DNA of 64,000 nucleotides from Pseudogracilibacillus sp. (GTDB taxonomy: Bacteria > Bacillota > Bacilli > Bacillales > Amphibacillaceae), in contig JAPFDT010000043.1 in assembly GCA_026169815.1 (NCBI GenBank), positions 15,118 to 79,117 of the forward strand, read 5' to 3'. A program made the position numbers and the translations under genes. Shown here in pieces: positions 3,330 to 56,840 of this stretch; position 1 is the first letter of the stretch, and each line of letters opens with the position of its first letter. The notes under the pieces were generated by a model. It was not told where the DNA came from, made no database searches, and worked only from the letters and a program-made list of their open reading frames with translations.

Positions 3330-3368
3330 CTTTATCCACTCGCTCAAAGTAGTGGATAAAGTTTTTTA
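3330..3368 (+). terminator. Terminator after scoB
   Basis: CTTTATCCACT (3330-3340) pairs with AGTGGATAAAG (3351-3361), followed by TTTTTT. Confidence 0.85.
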
Positions 3369-3374
3369 TCTTCC

Positions 3375-4025
3375 TCCGCTCGGAATTGTGGTGACTTTGC
3401 TCGTTTAGGGTTGCCCCCGCTCGGATTTGTGGTGTCTCTGCTCGTTTTCGGCTCCCCCTGCTCGGATTTCAGGTGTTCTCGCTCGTTTTCGGCAGCCCTC
3501 GCTCGGATTTCAGGTGTCCTCGCTCGTTTTGGTCAGCCCTCGCTCGGATTTTAGGTGTTCTCGCTCGTTTTCGGTTGCCCCCGCTCGGATTTCAGGTGTC
3601 CTCGCTCGTTTTCGGCAGCCCTCGCTCGGATTTGTGGTGTCTCTGCTCGTTTTCGGCTCCCCCCGCTCGGATTTCAGGTGTTCTCGCTCGTTTTGGTCAG
3701 CCCCCGCTCGGATATCAGGTGTCTTCGCTCGTTTTCGGCTACCCTCGCTCGGATTTCAGGTGTTCTCGCTCGTTTTCGGCTACCCTCGCTCGGATTTCAG
3801 GTGGCTTCGCTCGTTTTGGTCAGCCCCCGCTCGGATATCAGGTGTCCTCGCTCGTTTTCGGCTCCCCTCGCTCGGATTTCAGGTGTCCTCGCTCGTTTTC
3901 GGCTCCCCCCGCTCGAATTTCAGCTGTCCTCGCTCGTTTATGATTGCCCTCGCTCGGATTTCAGCTGTCCTCGCTCGTTTTCACAGCTCTTCGCTCGAAT
4001 TTCCAACAATCCCGCTCGTTTAACT
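3375..4025 (+). repeat. Tandem array, 41-bp compound unit (two related ~20/21-bp half units each starting GCTCG), about 16 copies
   Basis: GCTCGG recurs at 3378, 3419, 3460 and onward with exact 41-bp phasing. Unit is roughly GCTCGGATTTCAGGTGTYCTC + GCTCGTTTTCGGCWSCCCYC. All three + frames are open but there is no RBS. Confidence 0.95.
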
Positions 4026-9489: not shown

Positions 9490-10431
9490 ATGGCAAAAAT
9501 TTGTGTAGTAGGCAGTGTGAATATGGATATCGTAACATACGTAAATGATATTCCAGTTCGCGGACAAACAGTAAATGGAAAAAAACTAGTAGAAACAGCA
9601 GGAGGGAAAGGAGCGAACCAGGCAGTCGCAGTAGCGAAACAAAATAAAGACGTTGCGCTCATTGGATGTATCGGCGATGATTACCACGGAGATATGTTAC
9701 TCCAAAGTTTACGCGAATATAAGGTCGATACTTCGAAATTGAAACAATTACAAGACACAGCTAGCGGAAAAACATCAATCGTTGTCGAAGATTCAGGGGA
9801 AAATTTCATTATTTATTTAGAAGGTGCTAATAAAAAATTAGACAAAGGCTACGTACGTAACACAATACAAGCCGAAAAGAATTGTGAAGTATTGCTTGTA
9901 CAATTAGAAAGTCCATATGATGTCGTTTTAGAAGCGATGAAAACAGCGCACGAACAAGGAATAAAAGTTATCTTAGATCCAGCACCATCCAATCACGTAA
10001 CAGATGAGTTACTACAGTATGCTCATTTAGTATTACCTAATGAACAAGAAACAAGAGAGATTACTGGTATAACGATTACCGATGAAGCATCAGCGCTCAC
10101 TGCAGCTACTATTTTTAAACAAAAAGGGATTGAACAAGGTGTATTAAAAGTAGGCGCAACAGGCTCATATGTGTTTGACAAACAAGATATGACATTTATC
10201 GATGCCATCCAAGTTAAAGCAATTGACACGGTCGGTGCAGGTGATTGTTTTGCAGGGGCATTTGCAAGTGCATATGTCGATGGATTGTCATTAGTAGAAG
10301 CAGCAAAACACGCTAATATTGTTGCAGCACTAAAAGTAACGAAAGCAGGAGCGCAAGACGGAATACCAACACAACAAGAAGTGAAAGACTTTTGTACGGA
10401 AAGAAACTTACCATGTTATGTAACGAAATAA
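9490..10431 (+). CDS. rbsK: Ribokinase
   Basis: ATG at 9490 follows GGGAGG (the ORF extends back to 9469). PfkB motifs present: [23 protein letters not shown]. Confidence 0.9.
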
Positions 10432-10480
10432 ATCCGGAACAACAAAGTCGAGAAAGAAAAAGAAACTAGGAGGTGCTAAG

Positions 10481-11992
10481 ATGCGACAAACCCCTTTTGT
10501 TGAAATGACAGGAATAGATAAAGCATTCGATGGAAATAAAGTATTGCAGAATGTTCATTTAACGGTAAATAAAGGTGAAGTGCATGCACTCATGGGAGAA
10601 AACGGTGCAGGTAAATCAACTTTAATTAAAATTATGTGTGGGGTTCATTCACGTGATGCAGGTGAAGTGAAAGTAAATAACGAGCCAATTGTATTTAAAA
10701 CACCTAAAGAAGCCGAAGAACGAGGCATTAATATTATTCATCAAGAGTTAAATATTATTCCAGAATTAACTGTGACACAAAACATGTTTTTAGGTAAAGA
10801 GTTAACGTACGGAAAAACAGGTATTTTAAATAAACAAGCAATGCGAAAAGCAACGAAAAAAAGCTTACTAGAACTCGGTGTAGATTCAATTCATCCTGAT
10901 GAATTAGCCGGAAACTTATCAGTTGGTCAGCAACAAATGATCGAAATCGCCCGCGCTCTAGCGACAAAGTCAGAATTAATTGTCATGGATGAACCAACAG
11001 CAGCACTGACTGACCGTGAAATCGAAAGTTTATTCGAAGTTATTAACTCTCTACGTGACCGAGGTGTTAGTATTATTTACGTGTCACATAGAATGGAGGA
11101 AATTTTTGCTATATGTGACCGGATTACTGTATTGCGTGATGGATTATATGTCGGAACAGAAGTAATTAAGGAAACGACATTTGACGATATAGTAAGAATG
11201 ATGGTAGGACGCGAACTAGGTGAACGATTCCCTACGCGTCATGCAGAAATAGGCGATGTCGTTTTATCTGTTGAAAATTTAGCATTAGCAGGCGTATTTA
11301 AAGATGTGAGTTTCCATGTACGAGCTGGTGAAATACTTGGCGTAGCTGGATTAATGGGAGCAGGACGAACTGAAGTAGTCGAAACTATTTTTGGTTATAG
11401 AAAAAAAGAACAAGGTGAAGTAAAGTTACATGGAAAATCGATTGAAATTAACCATCCAGTTGATGCTGTACAACATGGGATAGCCTTTATAACGGAAGAT
11501 AGAAAAGATAAAGGACTACTAATCGACGCGTCGATTCGAGATAATGTCGCTTTAACAAATTTATCAACGATATCAAAATCAGGTGTTGTCATACGCTCAA
11601 AAGAAAAATCCCTCGTCGATGATTTAGTGAAACGGCTGCACGTTCGGATGGCACATGTTCATCAACCAGTGAAAAGTCTAAGTGGAGGAAACCAACAAAA
11701 AGTAGTTATCGCCAAATGGTTAGGCATCCAACCACAAGTATTAATATTAGACGAGCCTACACGTGGTGTTGATATCGGTGCAAAGAAGGAAATCTATTCT
11801 ATTATGAATGAACTAAGTGAAAATGGAGTAGCTATTGTGATGATATCATCGGAATTACCAGAAGTACTAGGCATAAGTGATCGAATTATGGTACTTCATG
11901 AAGGAAAAGTGATGCGTAAGCTACAACGCGAAGAAGCCGATCAAGAAAAAATTATGTTAGCAGCGACTGGGAGGTATCATGATGAGAAATAA
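10481..11992 (+). CDS. rbsA: Ribose/sugar ABC transporter ATP-binding protein (duplicated NBD)
   Basis: Walker [10 protein letters not shown]; signatures LSVGQQQ and LSGGNQQK; 503 aa with two NBDs. Confidence 0.9.
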
Positions 11993-15123: not shown

Positions 15124-15202
15124 TATTAATGCCACCTCATAAAAAATAACCTAAATATATTTTAACATATTTATCCTTAGAACTATAATTGAAGTATAGG
15201 AA

Positions 15203-15702
15203 GTTGATCGTTCTCCTATCTTGGAATTTGCTCTCCCGCTTTGGACTTTGCTCTCCCGCCTTGTAATTTGCTCTCCCGCCCTGGAATTTGCTCTCCCTCT
15301 TTGGACTTTGCTCTCCCGCTTTGGACTTTGCTCTCCCGCCTTGTAATTTGCTCTCCCGCCCTGGAATTTGCTCTCCCGCTCTGGATTTTGCTCTCCCGCC
15401 CTGGAATTTGCTCTCCCTCCTCGGACTTTGCTCTCCCGCCCTGGACTTTGCTCTCCCGCCTTGGATTTTGCTCTCCCGCCCTGGAATTTGCTCTCCCGCT
15501 TTGGACTTTGCTCTCCCGCCTTGTAATTTGCTCTCCCGCCTTGGAATTTGCTCTCTCGCCTTGGAATTTGCTCTCCCGCCCTGGAATTTGCTCTCCCTCT
15601 TTGGACTTTGCTCTCCCGCCCTGGATTTTGCTCTCCCGCCCTGGAAATTGCTCTCCCGCCTTGGAAATTGCTCTCCCTACCCGCATTTTGCTCTCGCTCT
15701 GC
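15203..15702 (-). repeat. Tandem array of about 25 x 20-bp units, core GAGAGCA on the minus strand
   Basis: The + strand reads TTGCTCTCCCGCCYTGGAAT head-to-tail; reverse complement consensus is GAGAGCAAATTCCAAGGCGG. At least five reading frames are open and none has an RBS. Confidence 0.95.
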
Positions 15703-15975
15703 AAAACTTTCACAATCCCTCATGAATTATCACTTTTCGAGATTAAATTACTTGTAAACTTGTATGATGCGTGTATCATGGAAAAGTATAAGAAGTTGTT
15801 CAAAAAGTCTGGTAAAAAGAATGATTTGCTTTTCTTGATAGGTTTGCTATTTAACGTGCATCAGCTATTTTCATAATTTTTTCTGTTAAAAAACGCAACC
15901 GAATCGAAATGCTAGATTTTTTATCCTCTTGATGAACAAATAGTAGAGATTTTTTATTAAATAGGAGGACATCGT

Positions 15976-19941: not shown

Positions 19942-20240
19942 GGAGCGAAATCTTGAGCGGGAGAGCAAGATTCTGATTGGGAGAGCAAGACTCTGATTGG
20001 GAGAGCAGAGTTTTAGTTAGGAGAGCAAAGTTTTAGTTAGGAGAGCAAAGTTTTAGTTTGGAGAGCAAGGTTTTAGTTTGGAGAGCAAAGTTTTAGTTTG
20101 GAGAGCAAGGTTTTGTTTGGGAGAGCAAAGTTTTGTTTGGGAGAGCAAGGTTTTAGTTGGGAGAGCAAGGTTTTGTTTGGGAGAGCAAGATTCTGATTGG
20201 GAGAGCAAGAATCTGAGCTCGAGAGCAAAATCACGATCGT
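19942..20240 (+). repeat. Tandem array of 15 x 20-bp units, core GAGAGCA on the plus strand
   Basis: GAGAGC occurs at 19961, 19981 ... 20221 with exact 20-bp phasing. Consensus is GAGAGCAARRTTYTRDTTKG. Confidence 0.95.
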
Positions 20241-20249
20241 AAGTACTAT

Positions 20250-20283
20250 TAAAATAGGAAAGTTCTAGCGATTGCTAGAACTC
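20250..20283 (-). terminator. Terminator after the NERD gene
   Basis: AGTTCTAGC pairs with GCTAGAACT; on the minus strand it is followed by TTCCTATTTT. Confidence 0.55.
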
Positions 20284-20303
20284 TCTTCTCTAATTGATTT
20301 GCT

Positions 20304-21266
20304 TTATTTAACAATTGTCCATTTGTAACGTGTGGCTTGTTTTATATTTTGAGATTGTTGAAGAATATATTTTGTTGTGTGGCGAGAGTTTAGTTGTAAG
20401 AATTGGCGACATTGCGGATTAGTTAATGTTTCATTAAATAATATTTTAAAATCCTGTAAAGCTTTTTCATGTGCATTGTTGCAAGTTGCACTACATGATG
20501 GACAATACCAATTGCCTGTTTTGCGCTTCATTCCGAGAAAGTTACATTGTGGGCATTGAACACCAGACAAGATTTCTGATGGATGAATTTGGTATTTCTT
20601 CATAATATCAATCATAAAATCTTCACAGTTACGCATTATATGTTGAACCACTTTATTCCTAGAATGTGAACTTTTTTCAATAGGGTGTTTAGAGGCAAGT
20701 TCTTCATTGAGTCTCCTTACTTGGTGCGGAATATCTTCTACATACGTGACAATATTTTTTAAACTATTTTCCTCACCTTTCACTTTGATATAAGTGCTGC
20801 GTTCTGAAAAGGCAACGAAGTAATAAATTGGTAAACCACTTTGTTTAGCTATTTGAAGGAAGCGCAGTAAGTTTGCTTGGACTGTTTGCACTTGAGTAAT
20901 TGGATATTTATAACGTTCAATATCACCTTCTATATCGCGATAACATTGTCTTAAAGTCGTATCAAAGGTGATAATTCCGGTAAAACTTTTTACTTCAACA
21001 ATGAAAATCGCATGATCTGAGACGATAAGTGAATCAATTTGCGTTTGCTTGTTATGCAAGGAGAAACAAACATCAGCCATAATTGTAAAATCATCAGACA
21101 AACCTTCAATATGATAATCAAGTTTTCTTTCTCCATTATAGCCCTTTTGTAGCTTGGCGGCATCGATACGCAAATCTTTTAACTGTGGATGATTACTAGG
21201 CAATCTCGGTATCAATGCATCTAACATTTGTAATGGTAGTGGACGATTACGATAGCGTATTATCAT
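20304..21266 (-). CDS. NERD (nuclease-related domain) protein with C-terminal zinc ribbon
   Basis: NERD signature KGYNGERKLDYHI ... HAIFIVEVKSFTG. C-terminal CPQC-x14-CPSC ribbon. Confidence 0.85.
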   Translation of the reverse strand: MIIRYRNRPLPLQMLDALIPRLPSNHPQLKDLRIDAAKLQKGYNGERKLDYHIEGLSDDFTIMADVCFSLHNKQTQIDSLIVSDHAIFIVEVKSFTGIITFDTTLRQCYRDIEGDIERYKYPITQVQTVQANLLRFLQIAKQSGLPIYYFVAFSERSTYIKVKGEENSLKNIVTYVEDIPHQVRRLNEELASKHPIEKSSHSRNKVVQHIMRNCEDFMIDIMKKYQIHPSEILSGVQCPQCNFLGMKRKTGNWYCPSCSATCNNAHEKALQDFKILFNETLTNPQCRQFLQLNSRHTTKYILQQSQNIKQATRYKWTIVK

Positions 21267-21447
21267 AGTGTAATTCCTTTCTTTTTATTAATAGCTTAAT
21301 CTAACTTTTTTAATTCGTCAAAAAGGCAAAATTGTTAATTGAAACAGAAATATGTACCAATTTTTAAAAAGTCTCTAGTAAATTTGTGAAGTTCGAATGA
21401 AGATAGCTATGAATTTTGAAAATCAGATGATTTATAAAAATATAAAA

Positions 21448-21768
21448 GGAGAGCAAGATCTAAGAGTGAGAGCAAAATCCAGAGCGGGAGAGCAGATTCC
21501 AGAGCAGGAGAGCAGATTCCAGAGCAGGAGAGCAGATTCCAGAGCAGGAGAGCAAATTCCAAGGCGTGAGAGCAAATTCCAAGGCGTGAGAGCAAATTCC
21601 AGGGCGTGAGAGCAAATTCCAAGGCGAGAGAGCAAATTCCAAGGCGGGAGAGCAGATTCCAAGGCGTGAGAGCAATCTCCAAGGCGTGAGAGCAAATTCC
21701 AAGGCGTGAGAGCAAATTCCAAGGCAGGAGAGCAGATCACCAAAATAAGTGAGCGATCATTTCCTAAG
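21448..21768 (+). repeat. Tandem array of about 15 x 20-bp units plus a degenerate terminal unit, core GAGAGCA on the plus strand
   Basis: GAGAGC occurs at 21448, 21467, 21487 ... 21728. Consensus is GAGAGCARATTCCARGGCGT. The terminal unit is GTGAGCGATCATTTCCTAAG. Confidence 0.95.
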
Positions 21769-21874
21769 TTCAGCGCTCCATTTTTGATAAAACTGAAAAC
21801 CTCACATGTCTTATTATGAATTCACATTATGTAGACCGATTGTCATAATCGTGGGTGAAAGGGGAGTATATCAT

Positions 21875-22087
21875 TTGAAAAGAAACTCGCGTGAAGAAAC
21901 GATTAAATCAACCGCTTATTTACTCCAAATAAAAAACTATGTAGGTAAGAGTATTAATGATATTATTGAACATAGTGGTTCACCAAGAGGATCGCTTTAC
22001 TATCATTACCCAAAAGAAAAGGAACAATTAGCGCTCGAAGTAGTTTTAAGGACGAAAGAAAATCTGACAGCTTTTATCACAGATTAA
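21875..22087 (+). pseudogene. TetR-family regulator, N-terminal HTH fragment only (~70 aa)
   Basis: The TTG at 21875 follows AAAGGGGAG. The sequence REETIKSTAYLLQIKNYVGKSINDIIEHSGSPRGSLYYHYPKEKEQL is a TetR HTH. The ORF stops where the ligand domain should begin. Confidence 0.65.
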
Positions 22088-22215
22088 TGTTAATACTCGA
22101 CCATATTAACTTAGTAGGAACAAATCTATTAATAGGATCGAATAACGATGACTTAGGAACACGTTTCCCAGATGCATCTGAAGTGTATAACAAAGACTTA
22201 CGCAATATCGCTTAA
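22087..22215 (+). pseudogene. Purine nucleoside phosphorylase (PunA-type) internal fragment
   Basis: The 42-aa ORF MLILDHINLVGTNLLIGSNNDDLGTRFPDASEVYNKDLRNIA matches the conserved ...SDHINxxGxNPLxGxNxxxxGxRFPDMSxAYDKDL block of PunA. The N- and C-terminal parts are absent. Confidence 0.65.
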
Positions 22216-22246
22216 TAAAATCAAAAAAAGTTAGGAGAATTTACAC

Positions 22247-28683: not shown

Positions 28684-31600
28684 TTATTTATATTTCGGTA
28701 CATCGAAAGTTAATGAATAGTTATCGAGTAAATCATAAAATTTAACAAGATTACTAGTTTGTTTAACCGCCCAATTAATATCTGTAGCGTATTGATGGAA
28801 GTATTTATCTCCATTTACAATACTCGTTGGATCCCACTTCATTTTATATAAAGTATCTTGTCCAGCATGAATATAGTTTTTAGCAACAAATTCTGCTCCC
28901 CCAATAATCGCATCTTCAGGTGTGAACCATCCTTCTTCAAAAGCTCGTTTCATACCACATTCCCTTGGATCCTCACACGAGTCTGCTGCACCAATGCCGT
29001 ACATATTATAAACTTTCATACCTTTATAAGTATCGCCATTAGCTAAAGCAGATGAGCCGTTTCCAGTTTCTAATAAGGCATGTGAGATTAAATATAATTC
29101 ATTAATATTAAACTTTTTGGCTGCTTCTTGAAAAGCCTTTGCTTTTCCAGATAATATTCCCTTATTATTAAGGATTTTATTATTTACTTCCTTATCATTT
29201 GTATATACTGGTTCGGAAAGTACAGCGAATTGATAATAAGCATTAGTACCTTTATTAAAGTTAGCAGGGTTCATACTCTTCTTAACTTCATCCTCTAGAG
29301 GAATAATCCAAGTATGAAATTTATAGTAATCACTAGTACTACTTTGTTCATAGACTGTAATAGTGTCATGTACATAACGTTCATCTATAGTTCCAATTTG
29401 CTTATTCTTTCCGTTAGGGCTATTATATACTTTTTGATTTTTTCCGTTGACCTTCCACTGTCCTTTTTCTTTTTTCAAAGCACTTTTCTTGACATACATA
29501 TTAGTATGGCTAGTTTTAGGCTTAGTTGGATTATTCATCTGGGCATTAACTACTTGATTGATTGTCATGTTATAATTTGTTGATTTATATTGTAACGTTT
29601 TTTTACCTACATCATCAACGTGAATATATCCTGTTTTATAAGATCCATTTACCTTTACTCTAGCTTCATACCAATTTTTCGAAAAAGTTTTGAATTTAAT
29701 CGGGCTTCCTTTAGAGTATGTTTTTATGACTTCAGAGTTTCTTGATGCAGTTTGATAGATCGTTGTCGGATCTTTTGCTGCAAATGATCCATTAACAGTT
29801 TTTTGTGCTTTTGCAGACTCAGCATCTTCAATATCTTTGTATTGGATATATCCTGTTTGATAAGAACCATTAATCTTCACGCTAGCTTGATACCAACCAT
29901 TACCATATTCTTTATACTTTAAAATACTCCCTTGCTCATAAGTTTTAATAACCTGAGAAGAAGAGAAGGGTTTTTGATAAATATTAGTTGGTTTCTTTAA
30001 TCCAATTCCCCTTAGGTCGATTTGATTAGAAGGCGTTCCTACATGGTTTTTATGAATATACCCAGTTTTATAGGTACCATTTACTTTTACCCTAGCCTCG
30101 TACCAATTACTGGAGAATGTTTTATATTTTAAGATACTACCTTTATTGTAAGATTTTAAAACTTTAGAATCAGTAGAACTTTTTGTATAAATATTTATTT
30201 TGTTTTGAAGCCCTACTCCGAATTCAGATTCTTGTTTAGCTACTTTGTTTTCCACGTGGGATTTATGAATGTACCCAGTTTTCTTATTCCCTTTAATAAA
30301 TACTGTAGCTTCATACCAATCTTTAGAAAAAGTTTTATACTTTAAAATCGATCCTTGTTCGTAAGACTTTAATTTTTTAGAATTAGTCGAAGCTTTAGAA
30401 TAAACGTTCGTAGGTGACTTAGTTCCGATACCCCTTGTTGTTTCTTGTTTACTCAATTTGTTTTCTACATGAGACTTGTGAATATATCCAGTTTTATAAG
30501 CACCGTTTACTTTTACTCTAGCTTCATACCAATCTTTAGAAAAAGTTTTATACTTTAAAATTGATCCTTGTTCGTAAGACTTTATTTTTTTAGAACTAGT
30601 CGAAGCTTTAGAATAAATATTCGTAGGTGACTTAGTGCCAATACCCCTTACCGTCTCTTGTTTATTCAATTTGTTTTCTACATGAGACTTGTGAATATAT
30701 CCAGTTTTATAAGCACCGTTTACTTTTACTCTAGCTTCATACCAATCTTTAGAAAAAGTTTTATACTTTAAAATCGATCCTTGTTCGTAAGATTTTAACT
30801 TACTAGAATTAGTTGCAGCTTTAGAATAAATATGTGTAGGTGATTTAGTACCAATTCCTTGTAAAGTTTCTTGTTTATCAACTTTACTTTCAACATGAGA
30901 TTTATTAATATACCCTGTAGAAGGTTTACCGTTAATAAAGACAGTTGCTTCATACCAATTCGAATTTAAAGAACGATATTTTAAAATCGATCCTTTTGAA
31001 TAAGACTTTAAAATATTTGAATCAGTAGATTGCTTAGAATAAACATTAGTCTCACTCTTCAAAGCAACTCCATAAAATATTTCTTGTTTCAATGAAAGTG
31101 TAGAGGTAGATGTTTTTTCTTTAGATGAATCATTAGAATTTAAATCATCTATCTCCTCAGTTTGAGTATCTTCAGAGTCAATGTCAGTATCGACTAAAGT
31201 ATCATCTTCATTAATATCATCATCTTGATTCGTTTCATTATCCTCGTTCTTTTTCTTATCAGATGAGTCATCTATAAGTTCGATATACTTATTTTCTACA
31301 TAACCTTCTAAAAAGTTAGCATCCAAGTCATTGTCAGAATTCCTATCTTCCTGTGACTCAGCATTTGATTCGTTATCATAAATCTCATCTTTTTCGAGTT
31401 TATCGCTAGAATCATTGATATCTAATTCCTCTTTTCTTACCATATCAATTACATCCCTGTCCACATCGGGACTATCTATTAATTTATTTAAATCAAGATT
31501 CGATGTGCTGGAATCAAACTTAACTAACGAATGTGTCTCGGACTTTTCTACAACTTCAACTTCATCATTATTTTCTAAGAAAAAAAGTATGTCATCTTTT

Positions 31601-31779
31601 TCATCCTTATCTTCTAGAACCTCCCGATATAATGGAATCTCTGAAATATCCTCATGGTCTATAGTTATAAAAGCATTGACTTTTAAACTGTTATCTTCTT
31701 CTGAGTTATTATCGTTTGCTAACGCATAAAGAGGGGTGAATGAAGTTTGAACAACCAGTATAAATGTAAGGAAAACCAA
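28684..31779 (-). CDS. Secreted cell-wall hydrolase: acidic linker, ~9 SH3b repeats, C-terminal N-acetylglucosaminidase (LytD-like glucosaminidase domain)
   Basis: 1031+ aa with the same SH3b module family as the amidase gene. C-terminal region has AFQEAAKKFNINELYLISHALLETGNGSS ... YNMYGIGA ... ATDINWA. The true start is probably a few codons upstream (see findings). Confidence 0.85.
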   Translation of the reverse strand: MVFLTFILVVQTSFTPLYALANDNNSEEDNSLKVNAFITIDHEDISEIPLYREVLEDKDEKDDILFFLENNDEVEVVEKSETHSLVKFDSSTSNLDLNKLIDSPDVDRDVIDMVRKEELDINDSSDKLEKDEIYDNESNAESQEDRNSDNDLDANFLEGYVENKYIELIDDSSDKKKNEDNETNQDDDINEDDTLVDTDIDSEDTQTEEIDDLNSNDSSKEKTSTSTLSLKQEIFYGVALKSETNVYSKQSTDSNILKSYSKGSILKYRSLNSNWYEATVFINGKPSTGYINKSHVESKVDKQETLQGIGTKSPTHIYSKAATNSSKLKSYEQGSILKYKTFSKDWYEARVKVNGAYKTGYIHKSHVENKLNKQETVRGIGTKSPTNIYSKASTSSKKIKSYEQGSILKYKTFSKDWYEARVKVNGAYKTGYIHKSHVENKLSKQETTRGIGTKSPTNVYSKASTNSKKLKSYEQGSILKYKTFSKDWYEATVFIKGNKKTGYIHKSHVENKVAKQESEFGVGLQNKINIYTKSSTDSKVLKSYNKGSILKYKTFSSNWYEARVKVNGTYKTGYIHKNHVGTPSNQIDLRGIGLKKPTNIYQKPFSSSQVIKTYEQGSILKYKEYGNGWYQASVKINGSYQTGYIQYKDIEDAESAKAQKTVNGSFAAKDPTTIYQTASRNSEVIKTYSKGSPIKFKTFSKNWYEARVKVNGSYKTGYIHVDDVGKKTLQYKSTNYNMTINQVVNAQMNNPTKPKTSHTNMYVKKSALKKEKGQWKVNGKNQKVYNSPNGKNKQIGTIDERYVHDTITVYEQSSTSDYYKFHTWIIPLEDEVKKSMNPANFNKGTNAYYQFAVLSEPVYTNDKEVNNKILNNKGILSGKAKAFQEAAKKFNINELYLISHALLETGNGSSALANGDTYKGMKVYNMYGIGAADSCEDPRECGMKRAFEEGWFTPEDAIIGGAEFVAKNYIHAGQDTLYKMKWDPTSIVNGDKYFHQYATDINWAVKQTSNLVKFYDLLDNYSLTFDVPKYK
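30238..30876 (-). repeat. Three near-identical in-frame 213-bp (71-aa) tandem SH3b modules inside the glucosaminidase gene
   Basis: Unit starts (minus strand) are at 30876, 30663 and 30450. Long stretches are identical between units, e.g. CCAGTTTTATAAGCACCGTTTACTTTTACTCTAGCTTCATACCAATC at 30488 and 30701. Confidence 0.9.
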
Positions 31780-53257: not shown

Positions 53258-54715
53258 TTGAAATTATCGAAATATGAACCATCATTAACTCTGAGTGAAT
53301 TACTTACTAGAGAAGAAGGAGCCTATTATGATCGGAAATCTGCTAAAATTCCAATTTCTAAATTGGCTGAGGCTATAATTGGTTTTGCAAATGCTGATGG
53401 CGGAATGATAGCAATAGGAATTGAAAATAGAAAACTACAAGGTATTTGTTCACAAGGTAATACTAAAGTTAATGATTTTATTCAATGTGGTTTTGAAAAA
53501 TGCTTTCCATCAGTCAATTACGAGTATGAGAAAATCGCAATAGTAAAAGAGAATAAAAAAGAAGATGAATTACTTTTACTTCATATAAAGCCAAGTATAG
53601 ATAAAGTTCATAAATCAGAAGCGAATGAAGTTTTCTTAAGAGTAGGCGATGAAACTAAAAAGTTAAGTTACGATCAACGAATTGATATTGAATATGATAA
53701 AGGAAGTAGGCTATATGAGGAACAGATTGCTGATGGATGTACGATGGATGATTTAGATATTGAAGTTGTCCAAAAGTATAAAGAAAAGTTACAATTTAAA
53801 GGTGATCATAAAGAGTTGTTGTTAGCTAGAGGTTTTTTGAAAAGAGATAAAAACATGTTAAATGTTACTATAGCTGGTGCACTTTTGTTTGCTAAATATC
53901 CAACCCAATTTGTGCCAAGTGCTAAGCTACGCTTTTACAGATATGATGGTATAAAAGCTAAGGTAGGGACAGATATCAATATATCTAAACAAAAAGAGTT
54001 TGAAGCGCCATTGTCAATATTAATTGAACAAGCTAAGCATTTCATTGATTCACAATTAAGGGAATTTATGACATTAGATATGGAAACAGGAAAATTTACA
54101 AGCATTCCAGAGTATCCTCCGTTTGCGTGGCAAGAAGGAATTATTAATGCAATTACCCATAGAGCATATAATATACACGGTGATGATATTAAAGTTTTTA
54201 TGTTTGATGATAGATTAGAGATTCACAGTCCTGGAAAATTACCAAATATAGTCAGTGTAGACAACATTCGTTATACAAGATATTCTAGAAATCCAAAAAT
54301 TGCACGAGGTTTGTCCGATTTAGAATGGGTACGTGAATTGAATGAAGGAGTTAAACGTATTTATATTGATATGGAAAAGTTCTTTTTGGATCCTCCTGTA
54401 TATGAAGAAAAACATAACACTGTAATTTTAACTTTAAAAAATAATTATATCATGCGAAAAACACGAAAAGAAGAACGGATTTCAGCAATATTTGACCGTA
54501 ATTGGAAAACTTTATCTAATAGCGAGAAAAAAGCACTAGAACTTGTATATGAGAAAGGTCATGTAAGAACCCGTGATCTAGCCTTAGCACTTAACAGAGG
54601 ACAAGGATTTGCTTTAGATGTTTTAAAATCTTTAAAAGATAAAGAATTATTAAGACTAGTAGCTTCGTCGAATTTCGATCCCAATCAGTATTATGAATTA
54701 AATACGGAAGAGTGA
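53258..54715 (+). CDS. AlbA_2 (Schlafen-like divergent AAA) / HATPase_c_4 / C-terminal wHTH protein
   Basis: N-terminal EGAYYDRKSAKI...LAEAIIGFANADGGMIAIGIE. Central region AITHRAYNIHGDDIKVFMFDDRLEIHSPGKLPN. TTG start after GGGGGG. Confidence 0.7.
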   Translation: MKLSKYEPSLTLSELLTREEGAYYDRKSAKIPISKLAEAIIGFANADGGMIAIGIENRKLQGICSQGNTKVNDFIQCGFEKCFPSVNYEYEKIAIVKENKKEDELLLLHIKPSIDKVHKSEANEVFLRVGDETKKLSYDQRIDIEYDKGSRLYEEQIADGCTMDDLDIEVVQKYKEKLQFKGDHKELLLARGFLKRDKNMLNVTIAGALLFAKYPTQFVPSAKLRFYRYDGIKAKVGTDINISKQKEFEAPLSILIEQAKHFIDSQLREFMTLDMETGKFTSIPEYPPFAWQEGIINAITHRAYNIHGDDIKVFMFDDRLEIHSPGKLPNIVSVDNIRYTRYSRNPKIARGLSDLEWVRELNEGVKRIYIDMEKFFLDPPVYEEKHNTVILTLKNNYIMRKTRKEERISAIFDRNWKTLSNSEKKALELVYEKGHVRTRDLALALNRGQGFALDVLKSLKDKELLRLVASSNFDPNQYYELNTEE

Positions 54716-54837
54716 AGAGTGAGGTTAAAGATAAAATAACGAAACGTTGATAACTTTATATCTATTTGTTTTTTAACAGATAATAAATAAAATTAAAATA
54801 ACGGGGCTTTATTAGTAGCTGGCTTCACGATAGGTTA

Positions 54838-55330
54838 CGAGCCTCTCGTGAAGTACTCTGAGCCTCTCGCATGTTTCCCGCTGAGTTGTGTGTTAAAAAG
54901 CTTGGTTCCTCGCGATAACATTCAGTATTATTTTAAGAGCTTCTTGTTTAAAGTCATGAGCCTCTCGTGAAGTACTCTGAGCCTCTCGCATGTTTCCCGC
55001 TGAGTTGTGTGTTAAAAAGCTTGGTTCCTCGCGGTAACATTCAGTATTATTTTAAGAGCTTCTTATTTAAAGTCACGAGCCTCTCGTGAAGTACTCTGAG
55101 CCTCTCGCATGTCTCCCGCTGAGTTATGTGTTAAAAAGGCTTGGTTCCTCGCGGTAACATTCAGTATTATTTTAAGAGCTTCTTGTTTAAAGTCACGAGC
55201 CTCTCGTGAAGTGCTCTGAGCCTCTCGCATGTTTCCTGCTGAGTTGTGTGTTAAAAAGCTTGGTTCCTCGCGGTAACATTCAGTATTATTTTAAGAGCTT
55301 CTTGTTTAAAGTCATAAGCCTCTCGTTTGC
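54838..55330 (+). repeat. Tandem array of 4 full + 1 partial copies of a 119-bp unit
   Basis: Unit starts are at 54838, 54957, 55076, 55195 and 55314 (partial), with very few differences between copies. Each unit starts with the hairpin TCACGAG-CCT-CTCGTGA and holds two GAGCCTCTCG boxes 21 bp apart. Confidence 0.95.
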
Positions 55331-56383: not shown

Positions 56384-56463
56384 AAAAATTCTCCCTTCAA
56401 AATGGATCTTGTAACGTCAAGTATGATGGAATGGAAGAGGGAAGTCTAATGATTATTAGTGTG

Positions 56464-56840
56464 GAGAGCAAAATTCTGAGTGGGAGAGCAAGATTCTAAG
56501 AAGGAGAGCAAAATTCTAAGAAGGAGAGCAAAATTCTAAGAAGGAGAGCAATATTTGAGTTGGGAGAGCAATATTTGAGTTGGGAGAGCAAGATTCTGAG
56601 GGGGAGAGCAAGATTCTGAGAGGGAGAGCAAGATTCTGAGCGGGAGAGCAAGATTTGAGGGGGAGAGCAATATTTGAGTTGGGAGAGCAAGATTTGAGAA
56701 GGGAGAGCAAGATTCAGAGTTGGAGAGCAAGATTCAGAGTTGGGAGAGCAAGATTCAGAGTTGGGAGAGCAAGATTCTGAGGGGGAGAGCAAGATTCTGA
56801 GGGGGAGAGCAAATTTTGAAGCGGGTGAGCACCTCCAGCG
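56464..56840 (+). repeat. Tandem array of about 18 x 19/20/21-bp units, core GAGAGCA on the plus strand
   Basis: GAGAGC occurs at 56464, 56484 ... 56644, then 56663, 56683, 56703, 56723, 56744, 56765, 56785 and 56805, with a degenerate GTGAGC at 56825. It is a mosaic of subtypes (AAAATTCTAAGAAG, AATATTTGAGTTGG, AAGATTCTGAGRGG, AAGATTCAGAGTTG). Confidence 0.95.

Follow-up and report, generated by a model that had tools for sequence, protein, structure and literature searches.

We analysed a 64,000-nucleotide stretch of the genome of Pseudogracilibacillus sp. (assembly GCA_026169815.1, contig JAPFDT010000043.1, positions 15,118 to 79,117; hereafter, the window), in which a gene for a protein with a nuclease-related domain (NERD), designated NERD-1 here, is flanked on both sides by tandem arrays of short direct repeats. 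Comparison with other loci inclines us to the view that the NERD gene and its two flanking arrays constitute a conserved gene-plus-repeat module, in which a predicted nuclease would reside beside its own recognition sites in a manner resembling the RAYT-REPIN systems. An earlier note on this DNA had called a link between the arrays and the protein conceivable but unsupported. That suggestion now has strong comparative support from approximately 35 loci of at least seven genera, in which the flanking arrays are mostly direct and the repeat units are specific to the paralogue.

Loci were retrieved by protein searches only, blind to repeats, and were obtained from exact-sequence homologue look-ups, GTDB genomes, JGI and ENA metagenomes, and distant Bacillaceae homologues. 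With a strict detector, 12 of 15 NERD genes were followed by an array less than 400 bp past the stop codon, compared with 15 of 219 other open reading frames (ORFs) at the same loci (Fisher p = 1.5e-10). For 31 of the 35 loci, a sensitive detector placed an array no more than 450 bp away, and the remaining four (L022, L025, L040 and L047) carried mini-arrays of three to four units that were recognized by eye. Array-flanked NERD genes occurred in Pseudogracilibacillus, Virgibacillus, Lentibacillus, the Bacillus cereus group, Rossellomorea, Heyndrickxia and Fictibacillus, and also in metagenomic relatives. Members of the family thus nearly always adjoin such arrays. We found no publication that links NERD with tandem or intergenic repeats, or that concerns 20-bp repeats of Bacillaceae.

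The proteins of this family are approximately 320 amino acids (aa) long, and the flanking arrays consist of 20- to 21-bp units, often organized as 40- to 42-bp dimers. Downstream arrays begin 0 to 290 bp past the stop codon (median near 60 bp). Upstream arrays end approximately 110 to 275 bp before the start codon in Pseudogracilibacillus, Virgibacillus and Lentibacillus, and reach to approximately 20 to 85 bp from it in the B. cereus group and Fictibacillus; at the B. anthracis-type locus of the B. cereus group, six to seven units lie directly upstream of the ribosome-binding site. The arrays follow a rule of orientation. The upstream array was direct with respect to the downstream array in 15 of the 17 loci that possess both (clearly so in 12), and the core of the unit was on the sense strand of the gene in every locus with a recognizable core.

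The genomic context of the module varied: an RND pump and a TetR gene in the window, a Mem_trans gene in Pseudogracilibacillus relatives, smpB-ssrA in the B. cereus group, copA in Rossellomorea, and dnaC-purA in the case of the second paralogue described below. No neighbouring gene other than NERD was conserved across lineages. Further, the number and length of arrays differed among orthologous Virgibacillus loci, and a single metagenome-assembled genome (MAG) carried two NERD copies that were 92% identical. At the locus of Rossellomorea vietnamensis (L044, 5977-6306), two copies of a module comprising a 6-unit array and a GC-rich hairpin were found past the NERD stop codon.

In the window, the G+C content of which is 35%, the heptamer GAGAGCA occurred 74 times (expected, 5.5 +/- 1.9), and none of 100 shuffled sequences contained as many. 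All except three of these copies (71/74) fell inside four arrays, designated A, B, C and D (Table 1). The earlier note had described two GAGAGCA arrays of 20-bp units in the same orientation that bracket a single NERD gene, and this description was borne out both by a repeat finder and by the in-register units, each of which opens with GAGAGCA on the plus strand. Tandem Repeats Finder reported array B at 19959-20209 (period 20, 12.6 copies, 88% matches, score 292), with the repeat running on to 20232, and array C at 21468-21734 (period 20, 13.4 copies, 91% matches, score 345). Array B is located 3' of NERD-1, between the terminator of this gene and that of the RND pump gene, which converge on it, and its core read along the NERD sense strand is TTGCTCTCC.

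The bracket is not the only place in the window where such arrays were found. Array A, one operon to the left of the bracket, has an IclR-type regulator gene on one side and the HlyD-RND operon on the other, and array D is flanked by genes for an NAD-binding epimerase-like protein and an aldo-keto reductase; no NERD gene adjoins either array. Array E, which belongs to a second repeat family, has a CoA-transferase gene and an mreB/mbl-like gene as its neighbours.

The longest exact stretch common to arrays B and C was 13 bp, whereas A and C shared an exact match of 47 bp in inverted orientation. The unit subtype AAATTCCAAGGCG of array C was also present in array A, and the unit subtype of array D was also present at the edges of array B. 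The stretches between cores (10 to 13 bp) were almost the same in neighbouring units, and the conserved core comprised just 7 to 10 bp. The folded array was less stable than shuffled sequence (z = +2.70). Arrays A and C, which are mutually inverted, bracket the HlyD-RND-NERD segment of approximately 6 kb, and could mediate its inversion. The pentamer CGATC was found in the last degenerate units of array A (15180-15255), array B (20181-20256) and array C (21688-21770), in sequences such as GAGAACGATCA, AGCGATCA and CACGATCG, and array D was without it. Stop codons are nearly absent from array A in all frames, so that spurious ORFs as long as 211 aa appear on either strand in the region 15151-15876; false gene calls and assembly breaks are likely to originate from arrays of this kind.

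Table 1. Coordinates of the arrays, the NERD-1 gene and associated features (positions are those of the window, except in the last row, where they refer to the loci named)
Feature	Coordinates	Strand	Description
Array A	15208..15700 (GAGAGCA units 15229-15695)	-	24 units, GAGAGCA family, inverted
Array B	19942..20240	+	14 units of 20 bp, core GAGAGCA, and 1 degenerate leading unit
Array C	21448..21768	+	15 units of 20 bp, core GAGAGCA, degenerate end; upstream of NERD-1
Array D	56451..56834 (GAGAGCA units 56464-56811)	+	18 units, GAGAGCA family
Array E	3368..3986 (repeat 3376-3982)	+	Second family: 41-bp dimer, about 2 x 20.5 bp, core TCGCTCG
NERD-1 gene	20304..21266	-	Intact ORF, 320 aa; only ORF intact between B and C
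Terminator-like hairpin of NERD gene	20258..20285	-	12-pair stem, T-rich tail; between stop codon and array B
AT-rich upstream region	21267..21447	-	~180 bp, NERD start codon to array C
TetR-family remnant	21875..22087	+	N-terminal ~70 codons, TTG start; PF00440, ScbR-like E = 3.8e-9
punA remnant	22083..22218	+	Internal; TIGR01700 positions 105-145 of 249, E = 5.5e-11
Leader-bearing arrays (B. cereus group)	L025 3880-3945; L043 4860-4925; L050 6001-6066; L051 4003-4068		Arrays with the left-end leader

The core of the unit differed between lineages. The counterparts of the core in the window (TTGCTCTCC) were AATCGCTCAT, CATCGCAC, GGCACAT and CTCGAGCGAGCAGC in various relatives, AATCGCGCAC in Virgibacillus flavescens, and AATCGCCGATATA at the B. 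anthracis-type locus. These lineage-specific cores have a common theme similar to AATCG/TCGCTC. Further, like recognition helices were accompanied by like cores: GCACAT in L014 and L032, CATCGCAC in L024 and L039, and TCGCTC in L040, L035 and L038. In genomes that encode two or three paralogues, a distinct unit family was present beside each of them.

The organism of the window possesses a second paralogue, NERD-2 (locus L040; 37% identity), which is located downstream of purA at dnaC-purA. L040 was detected in the same sequencing runs as the window: words sampled from the NERD-1 stretch were present in run X1 at a fraction of 0.85 and words sampled from L040 at a fraction of 0.98, and the two stretches had 14 of their 16 top-ranked runs in common. 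The TCGCTCG units that flank NERD-2 (L040 2455-2525 and 3596-3670) aligned to array E with a score of 59, compared with a score of 21 at most for arrays A and B, the GAGAGCA arrays tested. Thus, the two paralogues and the two repeat families are paired one to one in this organism. Arrays of both families are also located away from either NERD gene.

Within the B. cereus group, an array located 5' of a B. thuringiensis homologue matched 10 places in its own 571-kb record and 18 places in the 5.5-Mb record of Bacillus sp. N5-665, as well as three further plasmids of B. thuringiensis and B. mycoides. None of the matched places overlapped an annotated feature. A left-end leader, TGTCG..TCGATAT..TGTCGAATCG, was common to arrays with and without NERD, on chromosomes as well as on plasmids (mean column identity, 80%; Table 1), suggesting that the arrays of this group may have spread as whole units. 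At smpB-ssrA of N5-665, the array and NERD gene were replaced by a gene for a LysE-type exporter (L052 1658-2791, compared with L043 4779-6121), which was bounded by the direct repeat TTATGGTTCTTTTTGTTT; these are ssrA-type att repeats and not arrays. The arrays without NERD in N5-665 indicate that arrays are able to survive in its absence for some time at least, and the replacement indicates that loss or exchange can affect the gene and the array next to it jointly.

Contigs of five public runs (L001-L005) encoded a NERD protein that was 87-90% identical to NERD-1, and their gene order was array, NERD, a gap of approximately 455 bp, TetR (183 aa), PNP (272 aa), NupC (404 aa), DeoC and GT4. 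The upstream array comprised two to three units in these relatives and 15 units in the window, with homologous boundaries on both sides. Downstream of NERD, every contig that reached so far ended within an array at the position of array B. The shared boundaries and array positions show that NERD and the arrays on its two sides have long resided at this site, and the different number of units between homologous boundaries shows that the length of an array changes in place. The module of the window appears to occupy a constant position on the chromosome and not to behave as a cassette under active excision. The recent changes at the module are the length of the upstream array (3 compared with 15 units between lineages) and unrelated deletions in the neighbouring deo-type operon.

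The earlier note had taken fragments of a TetR gene and of punA, to the right of array C, as a sign of past rearrangement at this spot. The fragments are real, but they do not bear on the cassette. The relatives encode an intact TetR, and alignment of the window with L001 (BLASTN) revealed that two segments, of 804 bp and 1631 bp, had been cleanly deleted. One deletion (L001 5967-6770) removed the C-terminal part of TetR and the N-terminal part of the purine nucleoside phosphorylase (PNP, the punA product), and the other (L001 4200-5830) the C-terminal part of PNP together with nupC, which is missing from the window altogether; the punA remnant is what lies between them. Both start over 300 bp beyond array C, on its right-hand side. 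The remnants are therefore scars in the neighbouring operon that are uninformative on cassette traffic, and we rejected them as scars of a cassette insertion. The deleted state of the operon was seen in several independent samples. In two more distant relatives, TetR-PNP-NupC is located elsewhere without a NERD gene, and arrays were absent in 17 kb and 20 kb of sequence.

NERD-1 matched the Pfam NERD domain (PF08378; E = 6.9e-16; 59.2 bits, cutoff 22.1) at residues 41-154. The residues of a PD-(D/E)xK core are present (E46, D78 and E91-x-K93), together with a Cys4 zinc ribbon (C238, C241, C255 and C258) and a C-terminal winged helix-turn-helix at about residues 265-318. In alignments of 22 to 32 sequences down to approximately 27% identity, E46, D78 and K93 were invariant, E91 was at least 90% conserved, and Q76 and Q107 were invariant or almost so; the four cysteines were invariant across the family alignment. 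In the AlphaFold2 model (predicted local distance difference test score, 92.9), an N-terminal helical segment is followed by the PD-(D/E)xK core, the zinc ribbon, and a C-terminal helix-strand-helix-helix-hairpin that we read as a winged helix. The best Foldseek matches in the PDB were Card1, VC1899, Bax1, Can2 and the R2 endonuclease (probability 0.94-0.98), with TM-scores that were low because a single domain was aligned. A sequence search of the PDB matched the zinc ribbon alone, to eL43-type ribosomal proteins. By Pfam, motif and fold, NERD-1 is a predicted nuclease of the PD-(D/E)xK superfamily.

The family is large, comprising 933 clusters at 50% identity (E <= 1e-30), and its members are annotated in databases just as "nuclease-related domain-containing protein". 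Homologous proteins placed the window near Pseudogracilibacillus and Virgibacillus within the Bacillaceae. The closest match to NERD-1 among GTDB species representatives was 60-61% identical, and an exact-sequence look-up of the NERD protein of the window returned no record. PLSDB contained records of a single distant homologue.

The NERD gene had also been credited with its own terminator and promoter region. A terminator-like hairpin is indeed present between the stop codon and array B, and was also found in the relatives L001 and L004. No convincing promoter was found upstream, the best candidate being a 9/12 consensus match at 21291-21262; the promoter presumably lies within the AT-rich region between the start codon and array C (Table 1). 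Mouse-gut metatranscriptome contigs (runs X17 and X19) overlapped the NERD ORF at 21032-21263 and 20228-20576, which is a faint hint that the gene is expressed and is compatible with carry-over of DNA.

The window contains two other repeats. A 119-bp unit is repeated 4.1 times with 95% identity at 54837-55326, in an intergenic region beside a gene with Schlafen/AlbA_2 and HATPase_c_4 domains (53258-54715), and has no match in Rfam. Neither the window as a whole nor the arrays nor this 119-bp repeat contained a tRNA, a tmRNA or an Rfam family. Tandem repeats of 213/426 bp at 30050-31089 lie within an ORF of 1031 aa (28684-31779, minus strand), which probably encodes a repeat-containing surface protein.

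We propose the following model of the module. The zinc ribbon and winged helix of the C-terminal part would read the conserved core of the 20- to 21-bp unit, and with one unit every two helical turns, successive cores would be presented on the same side of the DNA. The arrays beside the gene would be the cognate sites of the NERD protein, the gene-less arrays A and D would be further copies of the same unit family elsewhere in the genome, and NERD-2 would be paired with the second family, represented by array E. In the manner of RAYT-REPIN or of a transposase and its MITEs, the nuclease would bind the units and nick or cut there. Repair of the lesions, through slippage, unequal exchange or copying between arrays, would lengthen or shorten the arrays, homogenise them within a genome, and occasionally seed arrays at new loci. 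The NERD gene would persist by residing inside its own repeats. The compared sequences themselves show the association of gene and array, the rule of orientation, the unit families specific to each paralogue, the conservation of catalytic and zinc-binding residues, and the variation of array length in place; binding, cleavage and a causal role in the dynamics and spread of arrays are what we infer from them. In its widest form, the proposal would make the family the enzymes of a previously unrecognised class of element, a dsDNA-nuclease counterpart of RAYT-REPIN with co-evolving protein-DNA specificity, in which each paralogue, as a site-specific PD-(D/E)xK nuclease, creates, homogenises and disperses its own arrays on chromosomes and plasmids of Bacillaceae, including the B. 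cereus group. We consider this wider proposal possible and put it forward tentatively, as it is rather doubtful at present.

Several observations weigh against the proposed module. The link between array and NERD protein is drawn from comparison throughout, and many of the loci come from related species, so that the counts are not fully independent. The correspondence between recognition helices and cores may reflect common ancestry and not co-adaptation. In L004 and L005, the NERD gene is frameshifted (10001-10962; 209 + 110 aa), and in V. flavescens (L023, 9983-10945), it contains an in-frame stop codon; in each case the arrays are kept. The V. flavescens locus is also one of the two in which the upstream array is inverted. 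The 5.5-Mb replicon of N5-665 has no detectable NERD homologue despite its 18 array-like places. Further, the ends of the arrays in the window are weakly conserved, and strongly conserved array ends such as those of the B. cereus group were not seen in this genome. Finally, the model leaves unexplained how a double-strand nuclease would found an array at a new locus.

The units might instead be no more than sites of the iteron or operator type. The winged helix would then bind them, the flanking arrays would serve in autoregulation or titration (cf. mini-F ori2-repE-incC or parC/ParR), other arrays would have a structural role (e.g., in nucleoid organisation), arrays would grow by ordinary replication slippage, and the nuclease domain would act elsewhere or not at all. 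The spacing of 20- to 21-bp units at two helical turns is in keeping with this idea, as are the small arrays (four to seven units) of the B. cereus group, Heyndrickxia and Fictibacillus, which lie directly upstream of the gene as an operator would; two-sided arrays also recall the rep genes of iteron plasmids such as mini-F and P1. However, the invariant catalytic residues argue for a working nuclease, and many arrays are located downstream past the terminator or between convergent genes, where they are unable to act as operators. The end structure common to gene-less and gene-side arrays of the B. cereus group further points to spread as whole units and not to independent slippage, and no plasmid Rep family matched the protein. 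We consider this explanation unlikely, if worth keeping in mind. An explanation by chance, in which slippage arrays arose in permissive AT-rich intergenic DNA where the NERD gene tends to lie, would draw on the abundance of arrays in the window (five in 64 kb); by a simple estimate, with five arrays distributed over approximately 50 spacers, two of them would bracket some gene with a probability of a few tenths. Such hitchhiking is largely refuted by the present data, because adjacency was found in 31 to 35 of the 35 loci, compared with roughly 7% of other genes, the orientation is consistent, and the unit families are paralogue-specific; we give it hardly any credence.

The array-NERD-array segment might also be a mobile cassette that resembles an element with long terminal repeats (LTRs), of which the gene-less arrays would be solo-LTR-like footprints after recombination between direct arrays. 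Excision or insertion through homologous recombination had been envisaged in the earlier note. The mostly direct orientation of the flanking arrays, the different contexts of the module across genera and paralogues, the two 92%-identical copies in one MAG, and the exchange, next to ssrA, of the array and NERD gene for another gene in N5-665 would all accord with a cassette. Nevertheless, the 13 bp shared by B and C are too little for efficient homologous recombination, so that exchange between them was rejected and excision is unlikely in this strain, and some flanking arrays comprise just two to three units; at other loci, the two flanks resemble each other more closely. A comparison with relatives, in which a site without NERD and with a single merged array was sought, revealed no such site: the 87-90% identical relatives keep the gene and arrays in place. 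Empty sites were also missing from the public-run contigs, which is weak evidence because short-read contigs break in arrays; the public-run contigs over the locus contained no excision or merged-array junctions and were low-coverage fragments ending in arrays. Neither target-site duplications nor cassette-terminal repeats were seen at the NERD cassette, and terminal inverted repeats were rejected, the single candidate being an AT-rich pair of 31 nt with 74% complementarity. Further, arrays are far more numerous than genes, and the replacement in N5-665 is bounded by att repeats rather than by arrays. A cassette of this kind is thus improbable. Even less probable is a defence gene against phages or plasmids, with the arrays as decoys, sensors or self-markers. 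NERD domains are known in defence proteins, and weak matches to the NERD part of PglW/MAD6 were obtained here, but the defence context that had been invoked for NERD was not found: there was no defence island, and PADLOC gave no system match for NERD-1 and one marginal domain match, to the NERD part of PglW (E about 1e-3). The genes around it have housekeeping or transport functions, NERD itself is solitary and vertically inherited within species groups, and NERD matches in phages are distant (24% identity). We regard this explanation as very unlikely.

If the link between NERD protein and array is functional, a large uncharacterised family, present in the well-studied B. cereus group, gains a testable substrate, and a class of unexplained intergenic tandem arrays, which break short-read assemblies and give rise to spurious ORFs, gains an origin. 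That units are specific to paralogues suggests a naturally occurring collection of nucleases or DNA-binding proteins, whose recognition sites, approximately 10-12 bp long, would be diverse. Further, the fast-changing lengths of the arrays could serve as markers for strain typing.

Among known systems, CRISPR arrays likewise consist of regular repeats beside a nuclease gene, with a repeat sequence that is specific to the lineage. The arrays described here are not CRISPR arrays, as they have no unique spacers, no cas genes, and no Rfam or other RNA signal. The TnsA protein of Tn7 comprises a PD-(D/E)xK domain followed by a C-terminal winged helix and acts at the repeated sites of the transposon ends. 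The NERD family is similar to TnsA in this domain logic, but there was no detectable sequence match or top-ranked fold match between them, NERD has an additional zinc ribbon, and its locus has neither tnsB/tnsC partners nor inverted transposon ends.

STAR elements of staphylococci are interspersed intergenic direct repeats with a regular short core, a strain-variable copy number and a lineage-specific sequence (PMC3532100). The NERD arrays share these features of regular short-core intergenic direct repeats, variable copy number and lineage specificity. The core of STAR elements is GC-rich and recurs roughly every 40 bp, and differs from that of the NERD arrays in both sequence and spacing. 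We know of no protein-coding gene that has been reported in association with STAR elements. In iteron replicons and repeat centromeres, such as ori2-repE-incC of mini-F, oriR-repA-incA of P1 and parC of pSK41, direct repeats of approximately 19 to 22 bp are bound by the product of the gene. The NERD module is similar to them in that tandem direct repeats with two-helical-turn spacing lie on both sides of the gene or just upstream of it. In contrast, it is chromosomal, with arrays of 15-45 units at many loci and a nuclease domain in the protein; no origin features were identified, and a Pfam profile scan gave no match to plasmid Rep, ParR or TubR families.

The closest parallel to the proposed NERD module is RAYT-REPIN, the REP-associated tyrosine transposases with their REP/REPIN repeats. 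In these systems, the gene is single or low in copy number, and its own short repeats both flank it and occur scattered over intergenic regions; the repeats are lineage-specific and paired with paralogues, and the gene is mostly inherited vertically, whereas the repeats can outlast its loss (PMC3116915, PMC3337134, PMC5581495). The NERD loci share with them a gene flanked by repeats of the cognate type, dispersed copies without a gene, and paralogue-specific families. The two systems differ in enzyme and repeat. NERD proteins combine a PD-(D/E)xK domain with a zinc ribbon and a winged helix, and Pfam finds only NERD in them, whereas RAYT is an HUH/Y1 protein similar to the TnpA of IS200/IS605. 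The NERD arrays are non-palindromic direct tandem units of 20 to 21 bp, whereas repetitive extragenic palindromic (REP) sequences form hairpins as inverted pairs; hairpins of the REP type were ruled out as the identity of the arrays (z = +2.7 relative to shuffled sequence). Further, the NERD-array loci belong to Bacillaceae, and RAYT-REPIN is found mainly in Proteobacteria. If the proposed module is real, the logic of a domesticated nuclease with its own dispersed repeats, known from RAYT-REPIN in Proteobacteria, would also apply to Bacillota, where the fold of the enzyme is unrelated and the repeats are built differently.

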